This document shows positions 6,001 to 30,000 of a DNA stretch of 64,000 nucleotides, one piece after another. Source of the stretch: Candidatus Poribacteria bacterium (GTDB lineage Bacteria; Poribacteria; WGA-4E; PCPOR2b); assembly GCA_965116925.1 (NCBI GenBank), contig OZ220744.1, forward strand, positions 3,456,001 through 3,520,000, read 5' to 3'. How positions within the stretch are numbered: the stretch's first letter is position 1; every line of letters begins with the position of its first letter. Made by a program: the position numbers.

Positions 6001-9000
6001 ATAGATAGATTTGGGGTAGCTCTGCTTGGACCCTTGGACATGTATTATCGGCAGGTAAAATACGACGCGGGACCACGGTTGGGTAAACTGGGGTGGCAGA
6101 CCGGATACGGTTATGAAAATCGAATATATCGTTGATGGCAGTATATGTGATTATAGCACTACAGGCAATCGCCCCGAAAACAGCTTTGCTCCGATTCACC
6201 CTCCAATTCATCCCACCCCCACGGGGCGGACATCGTAAATCTGTGTAGCCGTGGGTGCATTGGCTATTATAGTAGATATCCTCGAAAATTGTCAAGCGGT
6301 TACGAGCAGGTCACTCACAACGTTTTCGGTTGCAGAGAAACACATCGTCGTAAGAGAATAAAATCTCTAATAAGAAAGTTTTTATAAAAATTATTTACTA
6401 TAAAGCAAAAAAAATAGTTGACAATGGTCAAAAAGTTTGGTATAATTCCCCCGTCTTGATAAAACAAGGCGAAGAAATACCCATCAGAATATCTGCGTGG
6501 ATCTACCCCGGATGGGGCGGTATCCAGAGGAAAGGGCCCTCTTGATACTGCTCTGTTCGGGGTTTTTTGTTTTAGGAAAGGGCAATGATGCAACATAGAG
6601 ACTTTTGGGATTCAATCATCGAATAGGTGGTTGATAGGGGTTCGCTTTTAACCGTTCAACCTAACCTGCTGAACTATGTTTTTCTGTGGAGTCCGACTGA
6701 GCTTCGGGTTGTGCCGAACCGATCTGAGGGGAAGGGGTTAACGCCAGACGATGAAGCTGGCCATTGAGAAGTTGAACAACATCAACCAGAGTATTATCAC
6801 GTTCGACGATCATATCCAGCAATTAGAGGAGAAAGTTAAGTAACCCATCATTAAGAAGGAGAAATTAAAATGCCACTGACTGTTGCAGGACCGAGACGGT
6901 TGGGTAGTTTGGAAAAGGATGTAATTAATTTTGTTTTTGATCACACGATTGATCCGGATGAGTTGTGGATTACGATTCCTGAGAATATCATTTATCCGAA
7001 TGATTGGGGAAGTGGGGCCTATCAGGCACCGGACTTGATTAAGATCAGTCGGGCGGCGCATCTTCATACTGACGACTTAAATTGGCATTCGACCATAGAG
7101 AACACCGATTGGACGAATATCAATAACTTTGAATATGTGGGACGGCTTGTCCATGAAGCTTGTCATCACTGGCAAAGGATTCACGACCGATATAATAATG
7201 CCGGGACGGACTATACATTTAATGGACAGATGTTAGCGAATCTTGATTTTGCGAACAAGGAGCAACATGCGTCGGCTGCACAGATTTACCTTATCGTGAA
7301 ATGGCAGCTAGAGCGCGGTATCCAGCTTGTGAATTTGACGGATGGCACGGCTTATGGAATCCAGAACATCGGGCCCATGAATAGGATGCTTCGGATCGAA
7401 TTGATTCCGCTTGACGACGATAACAATCGGATTGTGACTCAGGGAGTTGCAAACTCAATCGTATCGGATTTCGATGCGTATTTGGAGGAACTAAGAGGTG
7501 TTTAGCCTGTTAACCTCTTGAAGCCAAAAGCTACAAATCTCCTAACACGCGAAGGAGATTATAACATTACTTGCTTACGTTGGAGTGTCCGACAGTTTTC
7601 GAGTTAATCCTTTGTCGTAAATGTGATAGTGGTTTCGAGTGTCTGACACCCAGTATCCTGAACTAAGAGATCCATAACGTAGGTTGTACCATGGCGAAGG
7701 AGAGAACACTGATTCGGGGGTGTGAGTGTCACCGTGATAAGTTTATCCCATTGAGCCGTCCAACCGAGTGTTGGGCCCTCTTTAGGGCGGAGGTCAAACT
7801 GAGATGTGGCGATGTTGCCCTTTGAAAACGTGATAGTGATTCCGTCCCGATTCAAGGGGGCAGGGGCAATGTCCACATCACCATCATATATGCTGGCAAA
7901 TGCAATGACAAGTTTTGTAGGATCAAAAGCAGATGCAGCTTTCCCAGGTCTGGTCTTTGTCGTAAATGTGATAGTACCGTCAGTTTTCCAAGAGCTGAAA
8001 TCCTGAACAACAAAATCAATGGTGTAGGTCATACCGGGGCGAAGTACAGAACACAGATGCGGCGGCGTGAGTGTTACCGTTTGTCCATCTGCATACCACG
8101 CCACCCTCCAGTCGAGCGAAGTGCCTTCTTTATCGTGTAGGTTAAAGTGAGATAGAGAGACTCGTTCAGAGAATATAATACGTATTCCTTCACGATTCAA
8201 TGGTTCAGGGTCTACGTCAGTATCACCATCAGTGATGCTGCTTGCTGTAATGATAGGTCCTGAGAGGTCCAAAGATGCCGCTGCTTGAGACAGTTGGTTT
8301 GCAACGACTTTAATTTCGGCGAGATCTTCGTTCGGCTCTGAGACCGGGTTTTGGTTCCCGCAGCCGAGAATCAGGATAGTGAACATCAATAGAGTGAGTT
8401 TTTTCATGGGAGACCTCCTTACGTGAAACGTGATGGGTAAAATGCCATTCCCCCAATGTATCGGGGACGAGTCGGGATGTGAAAACGTGAAAATGGGAAT
8501 TTCACATTAGTTTCCTTATTTATAGTAGATTTTAGAATTAATGAGACACTCTAAATCGGCGCAGTTACAAACAGCGCCTACCAAACATGGGGAGCGAAAG
8601 TGCCCGTTTATTTTTTGAATTCACTATAGTTCATTGGTTCAACTGAAGCAGGTAAATCTTAAATAATTAATTGCAACTCACTGGGGTTTACTTCAGAAAA
8701 AAGCAGGGTTTCTCCCCAAAAAAATTAGCGATAGTCAAAAAGTTTGGTATAATTCTCTCGTCTTGATAAAACAAGGCGAAATGATACCCATCGGAATATC
8801 TGCGTGGATCTACCCCGGATGGGGCGGTATCTTTGTTGGTTCATCAGTTCATTGGTTCATTAGTTCATTGAATGAGCCGGTGGACCGATGAACGCACATA
8901 GCTGCTCTATTTGGGGTTTTTTGTTTTAGGAAAGGGCACGATGCGACATAAAGACTTTTGGGATTCAATCATCGAACAGATTGAGCGGTTCAGGCGAGAA

Positions 9001-27000: not shown

Positions 27001-30000
27001 GGTGGAATTACGTACTGGCGGTGCTCGTTACGGGTGGCATCTTTGCAGTCGAGATTTTCTTTGATAAAGGGATACTTGACGGCACCTTAATTGGTATGCT
27101 CATCATCAAAGTCTACGATGCGTTGAACCTCCAGAACGCCTATTTTTTTCCCTCCCAACGCTCACCAAAGAATGGAAGTGGAGATCTCAAAAATGATAAT
27201 AGAACGACTTCGTGAGACCCTCAAGCGTGATGAAGGGTTTGAGTTGAAAAGGCATGAGGTTCAGGGGATAGACCATATCGGATACGGCATCAACCTTGAG
27301 CAGGAACTGCCGGACGAACTACTGGGTTATCTTGGCGTGGAGGCTGAGGACGCTATTGAGGAGATTACGCAGGAACAGGCGGATTACTTGCTGGACTACT
27401 ACGTGGAAGTCGCTGAAGGGGATTGCAAGACCATTTATGGTGATATATGGCAGCACCTATCCCCGCTGCGGCAGGAGGTCTTGATCAATTTGGCTTTCAA
27501 TCTTGGGCTCCCACGTTTGAAAGCATTTCGGAAGATGAACGCGGCTATTCGTGTAGAGGATTGGACGGCGGCGGCGGCACAGATGCTCGATAGTAAAGCG
27601 GCACGGCAGACAGGGAAACGGTATCATCGGTTGGCAAGGACATTTGAGATGAACGATGAGAGCTATCTCAAACTGGATAAGATTTATGATGAACCGACTG
27701 TTCGGCAGGATCTTCCGGTGATTCCCACCGGGGAGGAATTGGCTGGCGTTGAGGACCAGGTACTGATTGCGGAGCTGGCGCGTCGGCTGGGCTTATGAGA
27801 GAAAACGAGAAGGCGAGAAGACGTGAAGGCGAGAAGGTGAGAAGACGAGAAGACGTGAAGGCGAGAAGACCAGACTTTGTCTCGTTCTCTCGTTTTCCCG
27901 TTCTCCCGTTTTCCCGTTTTCCTGTTCTCCCGTTCTCCCGTTTTCATTTCTTTTTCAAAAGGAGAAAACTAATGAAAAGGGTGTTTGTTGTATTGTTAGG
28001 TGTGTTGTTAAGTGTTTCGATTGCTCACGGCTTTTATGGCGATATTGCCACGGATCGTGAGAGTTTCACGCTTGGGGTAGCGGGTCAGAACGCAAACCAG
28101 ATTACTTCGTTGACCGCCCTGTTCCCCCTCAAGAACGCGAACGGGTGGGCGGGTGCTTACGTCAGTCGTCAGGTCGCCGATAGCGAGGTGGTTTCGGAGA
28201 CGCTCAACGGACACCTCCAAGGTGGATTCTTGGTTCGGGGTATCGGTATCGAGGCGTACATCGAGGCGACGCGCGACAAGTGGCGGATGATTGATCTCGC
28301 TATTGAGACGGGTTACTTCGTGCGTCCGGGAACATTTACCGCCGGCGGTATCACCTTCTCTGGCGGTGTAGGCAACTATACCGAGCGACGGGACTTAGAC
28401 GAGGCGATTGGTCGGGACAAAACAGATGCTTCGACCACATTTGGCTGGTTGGCGTTTGTCAGCGCCAAGTGGCGGAATGTCTCAGGGGTTCTACGGTTTA
28501 AGCCGAGTTTGGATTTCGAGGAAGAAGTCATCGAAGGCTCGCTTTCGTTTAATCACGAATTGACGGAAACGGTTTCGCTCGGTATCACGACGCAGGCAAC
28601 GATCGACTCGCAGGTAGAAGCCGACCAGACGGCGCATACATCGTATCTGATCAATTTCACTTACACGCCCGAATAATGTCAGAATATATTATCAAGAAAA
28701 AATCGAGATTGTGGAAGGTCCTCCCCGGTGGCAGGAACAAGTTTTCTGCCACACTGGGGGAGACCATCTACCTCACACCTAAGCGGTATGATGATTGGAA
28801 AAGCGGGAAACCGAAGAAATCGACGCTGGCACTCATTGAACATGAGAAGGTGCATGTTGATCAGTTTCGGCGTGACCCCGCTTTTAAGCGGCACTATCTC
28901 ACCAGTCGTCAATGGCGGTTGCTCTACGAGGCGGAGGCGTATGCGAAACAGGCGTTTGTGCGAGTCCAACTGGATAAGCGGAAACGGGGTCGTCACTACT
29001 TTGTGAGCCGGTACGCGAAGGTGTTGGCATCGAAAACTTACTTACTCTTTATGGACTACAACAAGATCTATAAAGCGATAGACAGGGAATATGAAAGGTT
29101 ATTATGAGTCCAGACACAATGATATGGGGCGTGATTGGCGTTCAAGTTGCGATTTCAATCACCACCCTCGGTGCGTTTTATAAACTAATCGGCATTTTAG
29201 AGGACGCGCGGAAGATGATTGGGTCCGTAGATCAACGATTGAGCGAAGATAGCAAGGAGCATGTCAAAATCATCGAGAAATTAGCGACGCTCGATGAAGA
29301 CGTGAGAGAACTCCGTCGTGAGCGATAAGATTCCACGATTCATGATTGATTCATCAATAATGTTCTGCTCGCCGGTGACGGTCTATACGGCGAAGCGGGA
29401 CGGCACTTTCGTTGCGCGGTGTTATTCAATCCCCGGCTTCGTCGTCGAGGGCGATACGTTTGAGGAGACGGTGGCGAGTGCGACGGAGGCGTATCTCACC
29501 TTCTGCCGGAAGGGGATCTGGAATTGACTGCACAAGGCATGATGGGGTTCGGGGAGAGGTCAAGCCGATTTTGGCAGATGTGCACGAATTGGTAAGCTGT
29601 GTCGAGATATGAATCTCGACCTACAATCGACTTAGTGATAGGTCAAGGTTTTGGAGTGGTGATATGATGCGCGCTAAGGTGGGTAATGTGGTTCTGCTGT
29701 AGCTGGTCTATACGACCATCAAGACGCTTTATGTCCTCTCTTATCAGAGATATATCCTCCTTAGTGGCAAGTCCAAGAAGGAAAGTTGCCAGACAGATAA
29801 ATAACGTGATAACTACACAAACGGCTGTCACTATCTGTGCTATGGTCGATAACGATTGCGAGTTTGCTATGATAGATCCTCCTCCCAAGAGCAGCGTATC
29901 ACCATTATAGCAAGCTAGCAGGGGAGAAGTCAAACCGGTTTTAGCAGATGTGCACGAATTGGTAAGCTGTGTCGAGATATGAATCTCGACCTACAATCGA

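Follow-up and report, generated by a model that had tools for sequence, protein, structure and literature searches.

The window, that is, the whole stretch of 64,000 nucleotides analysed and along which the features listed below are numbered, carries 21 family genes between 6870 and 25901: eight H genes for HExxH-type peptidase domains, eleven L genes for lipoproteins and two copies of a gene for a 263-aa protein (TF1 and TF2). An ORF listing, together with HMM searches run from stop to stop along the entire window, bears out the eight plus-strand genes, eleven minus-strand genes and two further copies described in the initial annotation, although its total of 27 orphan genes was not reproduced; the others would be small ORFs without assignment. 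In the stop-to-stop scan none of the 21 family ORFs is broken, and the gap at 8408-9431 consists of repeats and contains no hidden gene. Genome-wide, 12 H and 25 L ORFs were retrieved (BLASTP, E≤1e-5), where 10 and 26 had been claimed. The features are as follows.

6418-6580, plus strand: consensus promoter (TTGACA-17-TATAAT with TG) and structured leader of ~115 nt, just upstream of H1
6870-7505, plus strand: H1, 211 aa, HEACHHWQ, stand-alone VgrG2b-like zincin
7604-8407, minus strand: L1, 267-aa lipoprotein with two Ig-like modules, convergent with H1
8717-8934: copy of the promoter-leader element
9432-9887, minus strand: L2, single-module lipoprotein
9927-10385, minus strand: L3, single-module lipoprotein
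10747-11538, plus strand: TF1, 263 aa, phage-like
11599-12471, minus strand: L4, 290-aa two-module lipoprotein, divergent from H2
12598-13362, plus strand: H2, HESTHHWQ, in tandem with H3
13430-14320, plus strand: H3, HECTHYWQ, in tandem with H2
14379-15263, minus strand: L5, 294 aa, two-module, Pfam Big_5 above cut-off, convergent with H3
15660-16451: TF2, second copy of the 263-aa gene
16719-17345, plus strand: H4, 208 aa, HECTHDWQ, structure modelled
17370-18167, minus strand: L6, two-module lipoprotein
18438-19313, minus strand: L7, two-module lipoprotein, with RNA-library contigs mapping to it
19500-20369, minus strand: L8, two-module lipoprotein, with RNA-library contigs mapping to it
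20552-21283, plus strand: H5, active motif, in tandem with H6
21345-22262, plus strand: H6, YQCTRYWQ, without zinc motif, in tandem with H5
22392-22853, minus strand: L9, single-module lipoprotein
22893-23417, minus strand: L10, single-module lipoprotein
23554-24309, plus strand: H7, active motif, in tandem with H8
24447-25310, plus strand: H8, YQCTRYWQ, in tandem with H7
25440-25901, minus strand: L11, 153-aa single-module lipoprotein, modelled as an Ig-like sandwich
26187-26282: copy of the promoter-leader element, before a holin-like gene
26509-29107, plus strand: lysis cassette of two small membrane proteins, a lysozyme, a 293-aa protein and a 143-aa zincin
27172-27798, plus strand: lysozyme (PF00959) of the lysis cassette
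28676-29107, plus strand: the 143-aa HEKVH zincin, which matches a PHROG of unknown function
48185-48278: copy of the promoter-leader element, before the terminase
50677-51165 and 52807-53295, minus strand: L-like lipoprotein genes between terminase and portal
51253-51354, plus strand: H remnant of 34 codons between terminase and portal

The phage neighbourhood previously described was found again, with the lysis cassette, the terminase, a P22/SU10-like portal and an adaptor, and so were additional H-like genes, which are interspersed with genes for LRR lipoproteins just right of the window (window-equivalent 66.7-76.4 kb). The promoter-leader element, which at 6418-6580 closes with a strong hairpin followed by a run of U (MFE -57.2 kcal/mol, z -5.9), has only five blastn matches in the genome, all inside the window, and stands at the same positions in loci L001-L005. 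As regards the 263-aa gene, its two copies are confirmed, but the tail-fibre-like label comes solely from a language-model lead to viral clusters (the nearest being 99-100% viral); the protein has neither a PHROG nor a Pfam match, and no likeness to the collagen-like fibre of the island.

The two motifs reported as conserved in the H proteins stand only in part. HExxHxWQ is intact in six of the eight array members, H6 and H8 reading YQCTRYWQ, and EQHASA is present in four, being replaced by EQHAAA in H2, NQHASA in H3 and ERHASA in both H6 and H8, with H-A-x-A as the sole invariant part. The relationship with the VgrG2b effector has firmer support than the Foldseek match invoked in the initial annotation: a profile of 59 H sequences compared with PDB chains matches the VgrG2b effector 6h56 (E 0.0014) over two collinear stretches, R-x-LS-x-x-E...VF-x-DSID and IHExTHxWQ, and H-like paralogues of the same island match it at E 8.1e-8 and 3.2e-4. 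A later E-Q-...-Y-F helix is also collinear with the VgrG2b/Tpe1-Tpi1 system as described by Wood et al. (2019, PMC6899460). The predicted structure of H4 (pLDDT 96.0, pTM 0.93) places H in the fold of the VgrG2b C-ter/Tpe effectors, even though Foldseek ranks the VgrG2b effector only third, with a weak E of 0.48. Considering both homology and fold, the H genes are a stand-alone form of the VgrG2b/Tpe-class zinc-peptidase toxin domain, a family described as HExxH-dependent antibacterial toxins active in the periplasm, with a periplasmic immunity protein that is a lipoprotein in Enterobacteriaceae (PMC6899460).

H scores below the Pfam DUF4157/eCIS_core (PF13699) thresholds, unlike VgrG2b/Tpe: no match was obtained for any of the eight array H proteins even at E≤1, nor for any of the 59 aligned family members at E≤0.1, and only the 143-aa zincin of the lysis cassette touches that model (E 0.13, below the gathering score). 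Geller et al. (2021, PMC8213781) present DUF4157 as a domain belonging to the core of extracellular contractile injection systems. H resembles this 'PVC-metallopeptidase' in its HExxH motif and in its association with toxins and with machinery of phage origin; however, DUF4157 is described there as N-terminal to toxin domains and contractile-sheath-linked, whereas H is a C-terminal or sole domain and the genome under study has no sheath gene.

Relatives of the array proteins show in which protein contexts the H domain is used. Among ten long relatives scanned, six carry the Rhs-associated core TIGR03696 above cut-off before the H domain, one of them a 1643-aa Rhs protein with a Sec signal from genus g2, and the junction 'DPTGL|RALSPLE' between core tip and H domain can be read in P0078 and P0074. 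An orphan Rhs tip with the H domain is also found in the genome under study (117640-118836), together with a LamG (Laminin_G_3) match, and by Pfam the H domain forms the C-terminal end of seven PKD, three Big_12 and one LamG proteins among 26 long relatives. Placement after the Rhs core 'DPxGL' and behind so many N-terminal architectures is a mark of polymorphic toxins, supporting that part of the earlier proposal. In genome G085 (locus L019) a main Rhs gene is followed by pairs of orphan tip and lipoprotein, in the manner of Rhs orphan toxin-immunity modules, each of the four Rhs-tip zincins there preceding an ORF with a lipobox as judged by eye. The array H genes differ from Rhs systems: each is a complete ORF by itself, equipped with a ribosome-binding site and start codon and free of any Rhs core remnant, and the orientation is convergent.

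All L proteins begin with M-K-x-L-...-L-(I/V/M)-L-G-C, the lipobox L-x-L-G-C being invariant in the 13 sequences aligned, and in every one a disordered, Pro/Glu-rich tether of ~30 residues joins the lipid anchor to the first module. Pfam Big_5 is above cut-off in two of the eleven array members (L5 and L8). The L genes encode lipoproteins that face the periplasm, each carrying on its Pro/Glu-rich tether either a single Ig-like module of Big_5 type or two of them. Within the array, five H-L junctions are convergent and three divergent. The window and 11 loci, together covering six genomes, contain 34 H-domain ORFs of at least 150 aa; in 31 of them the nearest sizeable gene on the 3' side that is not itself an H is an L gene (HMM, E≤1e-3), a 75-103-aa unassigned ORF being skipped in three of the 31. 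Of these L genes, 27 lie on the opposite strand (convergent, in arrays) and four on the same strand as H, at loci L007, L008, L016 and L017 outside the array; the linked cases include a full-length Rhs of another genus and the orphan tip of the genome under study. In addition, the lipoprotein gene situated 12 bp behind the genus-g2 Rhs-H gene matches Big_5 (E 8.8e-10), which, together with the kept 3' adjacency, supports the claim of a cognate lipoprotein immunity. A gene directly behind the toxin domain, here one for a lipoprotein, recalls Rhs and polymorphic toxin systems, in which the immunity gene follows on the same strand, as L does at the four loci named but not in the arrays; an envelope-targeted partner, a lipoprotein in some lineages, is likewise described for Tpe1-Tpi1, and envelope location is what L has in common with the PA0261/Tpi immunity family (PMC6899460). 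The 3' linkage and the toxin architectures therefore favour a reading of the array as polymorphic-toxin modules with lipoprotein immunity, located within the accessory arm of a prophage island of podovirus-like type, and we consider it rather probable. The array is a fast-changing stock of peptidase genes whose carrier is most likely protected by the adjoining lipoproteins.

Several observations argue against the toxin/immunity reading. The genome, 99% complete, gives no match to VipB/TssC of a T6SS, RHS_repeat, eCIS_core or Phage_sheath_1, so that, unlike VgrG2b/Tpe, H occurs without a T6SS and, unlike Rhs systems, without an RHS-repeat protein for recombination; this lack of a delivery machine is joined by the array H sequences, in which neither signal peptide nor trafficking domain can be read. 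The array L genes lie on the opposite strand and not in the usual co-transcribed downstream position of immunity genes, and such Ig-like Big_5 partners, up to eleven per array, also set H apart from VgrG2b/Tpe. L outnumbers H, both in the array (11 vs 8) and in the protein database (at least 352 vs 85), and its module occurs in 112 of the 121 genomes of the phylum vs 8 for H, close two-module L genes being present in same-genus genomes without H. One-to-one cognate pairing is not borne out by H2 and H5, which are 54% identical, although their divergent neighbours L4 and L8 share 27-37%; close H pairs do not always stand by close L pairs. HExxH is lost in two of the eight array H and in 8/8 second-in-tandem H (five genomes), and the lack of DUF4157/eCIS_core hits, of a tyrosine integrase and of relatives in IMG/VR points in the same direction.

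Some of these features suit an enzyme-substrate relationship, in which H would process or shed L, for instance at its Pro/Glu-rich tether, thereby remodelling the symbiont surface in the sponge, adjacency reflecting a shared pathway. The tether present in all L, the wide spread of the L module and the RNA-library contigs on L7 and L8 agree with it, as does the suggestion that linkers of this kind may be a target of VgrG2b (PMC6899460). However, L is exported and H lacks an export signal, the Rhs core, which serves as a container for toxins, has this very H domain packed behind it, conservation extends to H copies without the zinc motif, and distribution is patchy with quick changes in copy number, all of which makes this explanation quite improbable.

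The phage setting raises another alternative, namely that H proteins are phage envelope-cutting exit or entry enzymes, which would either build up in the cytoplasm in the manner of soluble endolysins and gain the periplasm via holin lesions, or travel on tail fibres, and would there cut lipoprotein tethers or surface proteins, with L as lysogenic-conversion masks or mimics of the target that exclude superinfecting relatives, in a contest of phage against phage. The array adjoins a lysis cassette that itself encodes the HEKVH zincin, H genes are co-directional with the late genes and behind the same promoter-leader element, and L-like genes and an H remnant lie between terminase and portal. Six H-domain proteins of one group have an N-terminal module that resembles (blastp E 0.003; hhalign E 1.7e-5, probability 78.7%) the 88-aa ORF immediately upstream of the collagen-like tail fibre, a link of 40-50 residues only. 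Near-universality of the L module in the phylum is expected of a surface component, and VgrG2b is reported to lower membrane-bound lipoproteins in lysates and may release them from membranes (PMC6899460). Nonetheless, the occurrence of H in Rhs tips and in Rhs proteins with a Sec signal, always followed by a lipoprotein gene, is hard to fit; eight paralogues, of which one in four lacks a zinc site, exceed the needs of lysis; and no H or L relative was found among the 2.9 million viral contigs of IMG/VR. We thus regard this alternative as unlikely. Another comparable known system is bor of lambda, a lipoprotein moron gene beside the phage lysis genes and on the strand opposite to late transcription. 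L genes similarly oppose late transcription, near the lysis cassette and each with its own upstream region; but bor is a single gene of unrelated sequence, unlike the eleven paralogous Ig-like L genes interleaved with peptidase genes.

Within the phylum, H is confined to two genera and was found in 8 of 121 genomes. This distribution, the dN/dS values given below and the following signs of carriage by a phage speak for the toxin/immunity reading. At the same flank, two genomes of the same genus lack the island (G090, window 6.1-85.6 kb; G058, ~6.1-105.7 kb) and a third, G015, keeps a remnant, while arrays between this flank and the lysis cassette occur in loci L001, L003 and L005 of three other genomes, only the lysis-cassette side being covered in locus L002 of a fourth. 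The island may be defective, because no tyrosine-integrase family (PF00589) match was obtained in or near it. This, one H remnant, gaps filled with repeats and H genes without the zinc motif might indicate decaying debris of duplicated phage accessory genes, devoid of present function. On the contrary, all family ORFs are intact, four-gene cassettes are retained across genomes down to 33-57% identity, and dN/dS of the array genes is 0.20-0.59, below 1 and including a motif-less H (0.47); phage genes show 0.10-0.25 and the host flanks 0.01-0.05. Debris is accordingly a very remote prospect.

Under the toxin/immunity reading, H would act on the cell envelope outside the cytoplasm, by analogy with the Pseudomonas enzyme, and L, as the conserved adjacency suggests, would bind and neutralise the peptidases, shielding the lysogen and its kin. 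H is probably made with the phage late genes, since it shares their direction (lysis and packaging) and the same promoter-leader-terminator element, and L, with its own conserved upstream region, could be made in the lysogen. As the likeliest routes of delivery, it is proposed that H escapes via holin lesions and is set free when the phage lyses the cell, or that it travels on the virion. Location on a prophage island and conservation of zinc-motif-less paralogues are further departures from VgrG2b/Tpe; the motif-less second H of a tandem is probably non-catalytic, perhaps a partner or adaptor of the active one. In its most specific form, possible though doubtful, a temperate or domesticated podovirus-like element would make Rhs-type peptidase tips from late promoters without Rhs, T6SS or contractile tail, release them by lysis or on virions, use active/inactive heterodimers and keep a matching library of L inhibitors. 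If true, the phage would be running a diversifying arsenal of toxins and antidotes, shaping strain competition or superinfection among sponge symbionts.

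The source genome is a single contig of 6.47 Mb with 49% G+C and a completeness score of 99%. Upon ORF listing and a six-frame, stop-to-stop HMM scan of the whole window, the array was recovered as first annotated, with H genes (VgrG2b-like zincins) on one strand, L genes (Ig-like lipoproteins) on the other and two copies of a TF gene, and the same scan detected no extra hidden H or L copies in it.

Content of the array
Within 6870-25901, plus strand, H family (H1-H8), 8 genes, 208-305 aa
Within 6870-25901, minus strand, L family lipoproteins (L1-L11), 11 genes, 151-294 aa
Within 6870-25901, TF (TF1 and TF2), 2 copies, 263 aa each

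A shufflon or invertible-segment reading was dropped because each H and L gene forms a complete ORF that has a start and a ribosome-binding site of its own. The gap at 8408-9431 holds genome-wide repeats and one copy of an island-specific leader element. Outside the array, the stretch from terminase to portal contains an H remnant of 34 codons and two L-like genes. To the left of 6041 the genes are ordinary metabolic ones (enolase-superfamily, EamA, RraA-like and PhyH), and the phage neighbourhood reported in the initial annotation is indeed present to the right of the array, where a lysis cassette is found together with a collagen-like tail fibre and P22/SU10-type terminase, portal and adaptor genes. 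TF1 shows no likeness to the collagen-like fibre, and Rfam and tRNA scans of the window gave no match. Short palindromic repeats, MITE- or REP-like, were also observed (3785-4180, 8518-8628, 30129-30260, 48033-48164 and 55532-55663), with 212-635 blastn matches in the genome and dozens in each relative. The lysis cassette additionally encodes a 143-aa HEKVH zincin (28676-29107), kept at two loci of other genomes (L002 and L005), with weak DUF6782 and eCIS_core matches and a PHROG match of unknown function.

The eight H proteins share 25-65% pairwise identity and a common, non-hydrophobic N-terminus starting M-P-L-x-x-x-G-x-R-x-L-S-x-L-E. The HExxHxWQ motif, earlier attributed to the whole family, is present in 6/8, being replaced by YQCTRYWQ in H6 and H8. 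No significant Pfam, NCBIfam, PHROG or PADLOC model was found for the H proteins; PHROGs gave no match for the 10 array proteins tried and PADLOC none for 23 proteins, and NCBIfam returned sub-threshold lipoprotein-signal matches only. When a 59-member H profile was compared with all PDB sequences, the sole match was 6h56, the VgrG2b effector domain (E 0.0014), in an alignment that takes in both the N-terminal motif and the zinc motif with their order kept. Two more zincins, encoded in this island just beyond the right edge of the window, match 6h56 directly (E 8.1e-8 and 3.2e-4). The likeness to VgrG2b previously proposed from structure is supported at the sequence level; Foldseek with the confident AlphaFold2 model of H4 (pLDDT 96.0, pTM 0.93) placed 6h56 third (E 0.48), amid other zincins. 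According to the VgrG2b study of Wood et al. (PMC6899460), toxicity of the domain is restricted to the periplasm and requires the HExxH residues, binding of PA0261, whose orthologues are lipoproteins in Enterobacteriaceae, neutralises the domain, and the domain may strip lipoproteins from membranes.

The H family is small, with 85 proteins among 5.8 billion and four more in a longer class, Poribacteria being the sole organism name on any database relative. An exhaustive search yielded 97 H representatives, two of which (P0130 and P0133) were set aside as low-complexity or cytochrome matches. Scans of IMG/VR with the H and L alignments, and of JGI metagenomes with an alignment of Rhs-H proteins, found no relatives. 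In two relatives (P0078 and P0074) the H domain starts directly after '...NNPLAFIDPTGL', the end of the Rhs core, and the NCBIfam Rhs-associated core model scored above its cut-off in 6/10 long H relatives scanned, namely a YD-repeat protein of 1643 aa with a Sec signal, from a genome of another genus (G003), and five metagenomic proteins (P0074, P0076, P0077, P0078 and P0111). The core was not found in the other four (two PKD forms, one Big_12 and one fibre-like). A Pfam scan of 26 long relatives placed the H domain at the end of seven PKD-repeat, three Big_12 and one LamG protein; the source genome itself carries an orphan Rhs tip with an H domain (117640-118836), which also matches LamG (Laminin_G_3), and P0068 is a natural H-H fusion. 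Because polymorphic toxins are defined by a single C-terminal domain that follows many different carriers, the Rhs shell among them, H is read as a toxin tip, that is, a putative VgrG2b-class toxin domain of the polymorphic-toxin kind.

Some fused relatives, of both the PKD-H and Big_12-H forms, begin with a conserved non-Sec leader without hydrophobic core, 'M-K/R-F-P-S-M-L-R-R-L-R-N-T-Q-G-G...S-T-P-Y-T-P-Y', which may be an export or attachment signal.

Carriers of the non-Sec leader
Database relatives P0086, P0097-P0099, P0102, P0105, P0114, P0115
Locus L007, 6003-6701 and 8168-9493
Locus L015
Locus L016

Six H-domain fusion proteins have an N-terminus resembling the first 40-50 residues of the 88-aa ORF before the tail fibre, and these, together with the leader fusions, make a virion-linked route for H possible. 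This 88-aa ORF (30320-30586) ends exactly at the start of the collagen-like tail-fibre ORF (30587-31609), a split kept at L002 and L003.

Turning to the L proteins, all of them display an L-x-L-G-C lipobox, followed by a Pro/Glu-rich stretch of ~30 residues and one or two modules of ~100 residues, Pfam Big_5 scoring above cut-off in L5 and L8 only. Residues 6-50 of L8 (19500-20369) gave a sub-threshold NCBIfam match to Lpp/OprI alanine-zipper lipoproteins (E 0.006), in the helix that comes behind the lipobox in L proteins of the L1/L5/L8 type.

Interleaved arrays of the same kind, with H and L on opposite strands, were found at five loci in four other Poribacteria genomes. Across 34 H-domain ORFs of at least 150 aa, from the window and eleven loci in six genomes, the first substantial non-H gene 3' of H is an L gene (HMM E<=1e-3) in 31, an unassigned ORF of 75-103 aa being skipped over in three of these; the exceptions are L006 7871, L007 6003 and L015 16173. 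The arrangement is convergent in 27 cases and same-strand in four, the latter being the telling ones for linkage. In G003 a lipoprotein gene lies 12 bp behind the Rhs-H gene; it has Pfam Big_5 (E 8.8e-10) and matches the L profile weakly (hmmsearch 7e-5; hhalign E 0.0013, 18% probability). In the source genome 1 bp separates the orphan Rhs tip from the L-like lipoprotein gene behind it. In a further genome, G085, VgrG2b-like zincins are carried by one main Rhs gene and by three orphan tips, and behind each of these four a lipobox ORF was recognized by eye; none of the lipobox ORFs matches the L profile, and one belongs to the 'HPHS..PTFCL' lipoprotein family, also found behind X237, a 237-aa zincin of this island. 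Many longest-contig sizes are common to the H and L match lists (e.g. 73391, 55626, 158871 and 13747), an indirect hint that both families lie on the same contigs. Pairing is not strictly one-to-one, identity being 54% for H2-H5 and only 27-37% for the divergent neighbours L4-L8. L is the conserved lipoprotein partner of H and most likely an immunity protein.

A second array (L006 2749-12355, equivalent to window 66.7-76.4 kb) lies right of the window. In it, a 237-aa active zincin of VgrG2b-like type has a 178-aa lipoprotein behind it in the same orientation; the other members are a tandem of a zincin lacking the zinc motif (257 aa) and an active one (209 aa), three LRR lipoproteins and one LRR fragment, and five 'HPHS..PTFCL' lipoproteins. 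The zincin-lipoprotein pairing of this second array recurs behind an Rhs tip in G085 (L019).

The toxin/immunity interpretation of the initial annotation appears largely right in view of the Rhs-core architectures and of the 31/34 H ORFs with L at their 3' side. Against it count the lack of an export or trafficking signal in the array H proteins, the convergent orientation of the L genes and the fact that L is far commoner than H. Searches of the genome for delivery machinery, which found no VipB/TssC, RHS_repeat, eCIS_core or phage sheath, also count against it. For a toxin/immunity system, the carriage in arrays on a phage, with no known injector found, the convergent layout and the conserved pairs of active and zinc-motif-less copies are unusual.

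Two cassettes recur across genomes: cassette A, Ha> Hb> <La <Lb, with single-module L genes, and cassette B, <L4-type H2-type> H3-type> <L5-type, with two-module L genes. An intact HExxH is absent from 8/8 Hb genes in five genomes (YQCTR in four, then YQCAR, YECTR, HGCAH and FECAH), which despite motif loss retain an uninterrupted reading frame and a C-terminal tail that is conserved; dN/dS between H8 and its counterpart at locus L001 is 0.47. Hb genes look like conserved pseudo-enzymes partnering the active copy. Overall, dN/dS is 0.20-0.59 for array genes, 0.10-0.25 for phage genes and 0.01-0.05 for host flanks. Relative to L001, dS is lower in the array (0.28-0.49) than in the flanks (0.54-0.66), which suggests that array segments are exchanged between lineages. 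Distant points of the array (8869-19356, 15265-20407 and others) are linked in contigs from two DNA runs and from one RNA-library run, a hint of other array orders in the sampled populations, the join sides being short (21-52 letters in the DNA runs) so that repeats or other strains may explain them.

Regarding expression, a perfect TTGACA-17-TATAAT promoter (6418-6446), the only 12/12 plus-strand site of the array, lies just before H1, and the leader after it folds into a long hairpin carrying a U run (-57.2 kcal/mol, z -5.9). Equivalent elements precede the holin-like gene of the lysis genes and the terminase; their positions are kept in four other genomes, and no copy was found elsewhere in the source genome.

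Island-specific promoter with folded leader of ~115 nt and terminator-like hairpin end
6418-6580
8717-8934
26187-26282
48185-48278

The element, which we take to resemble a late promoter with a terminated leader needing antitermination, may serve as leader of a late operon or act as a small RNA. The L genes have a common upstream region of their own, including the palindrome GGAAACGGAGATCTCCGTTTCC, which could act as operator or 5'-UTR hairpin; ahead of L10 and L11 the repeat forms a 22-nt palindrome without any mismatch, and its copies at L3, L5 and L6 deviate slightly from perfect symmetry.

Inverted repeat on GGAAACGGAGATCTCCGTTTCC, in the 5' region of five L genes
10422-10441
15335-15354
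Equivalents upstream of L6, L10 and L11

Three near-identical contigs of one metatranscriptome-library run fall on L7 and L8, such contigs showing neither strand nor expression level. Many H-gene bins lack contig cover in RNA-library run X1, gaps that say nothing on expression because X1 consists of contigs of a small-share run.

Among 121 sampled genomes of the phylum, H occurs in eight, including 5/13 other genomes of the genus, 2/4 of a second genus and none elsewhere. The L module was found in 112/121, with strong two-module matches also in same-genus genomes without H; one genome (G000, 1517380-1522399, L009) has five consecutive L-like lipoprotein genes with one unrelated opposite-strand ORF between them and no H gene nearby, a row belonging to a wider family that most Poribacteria genomes possess. 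At the same PhyH flank, G058 is directly joined to genes located here at ~105.7 kb, G090 retains only a homologue of the S24 repressor (here ~85.7 kb) and G015 retains an L-like gene and a portal fragment, so that 6.1-85.6 kb is a variable island with the array as its left arm; the flank is rearranged in G098 and gave no empty-site reading. Since no tyrosine-integrase (PF00589) match was obtained in or near the island, in a search limited to that recombinase type, and the small terminase gene lies far from the large one, the element may be defective or domesticated; no recombinase was found among the ORFs to the right of the window when these were scanned against Pfam. The stretch 32111-47324 carries nucleotide-sugar genes, two Stf0-type sulfotransferases, a GHMP kinase and, on the opposite strand, a 1095-aa protein with dockerin and T9SS sorting domains, and an FGE-sulfatase-like gene (60294-61142) lies among the head genes; these genes are possible surface-glycan modification cargo. 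Also observed were a HicB-like antitoxin gene (33077-33418, minus strand) and a 131-aa ORF (47409-47804, minus strand) with 21-nt tandem repeats and several PHROG matches of unknown function.

Poribacteria live in sponges as symbionts that have not been cultivated, and to our knowledge little is known of competition among their strains or phages. The locus offers a concrete, testable pair of families, a VgrG2b-class peptidase domain whose H type has so far been seen in Poribacteria only and an Ig-like lipoprotein partner described by no library. It raises the questions of how a toxin domain of Rhs/T6SS context works alone on a prophage, in a genome without known injector, and why a zinc-motif-less copy is retained beside each active H. 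If the L proteins are inhibitors, they would represent a new fold class of immunity protein for the VgrG2b-type toxin family, and could help to identify the substrate of these peptidases.
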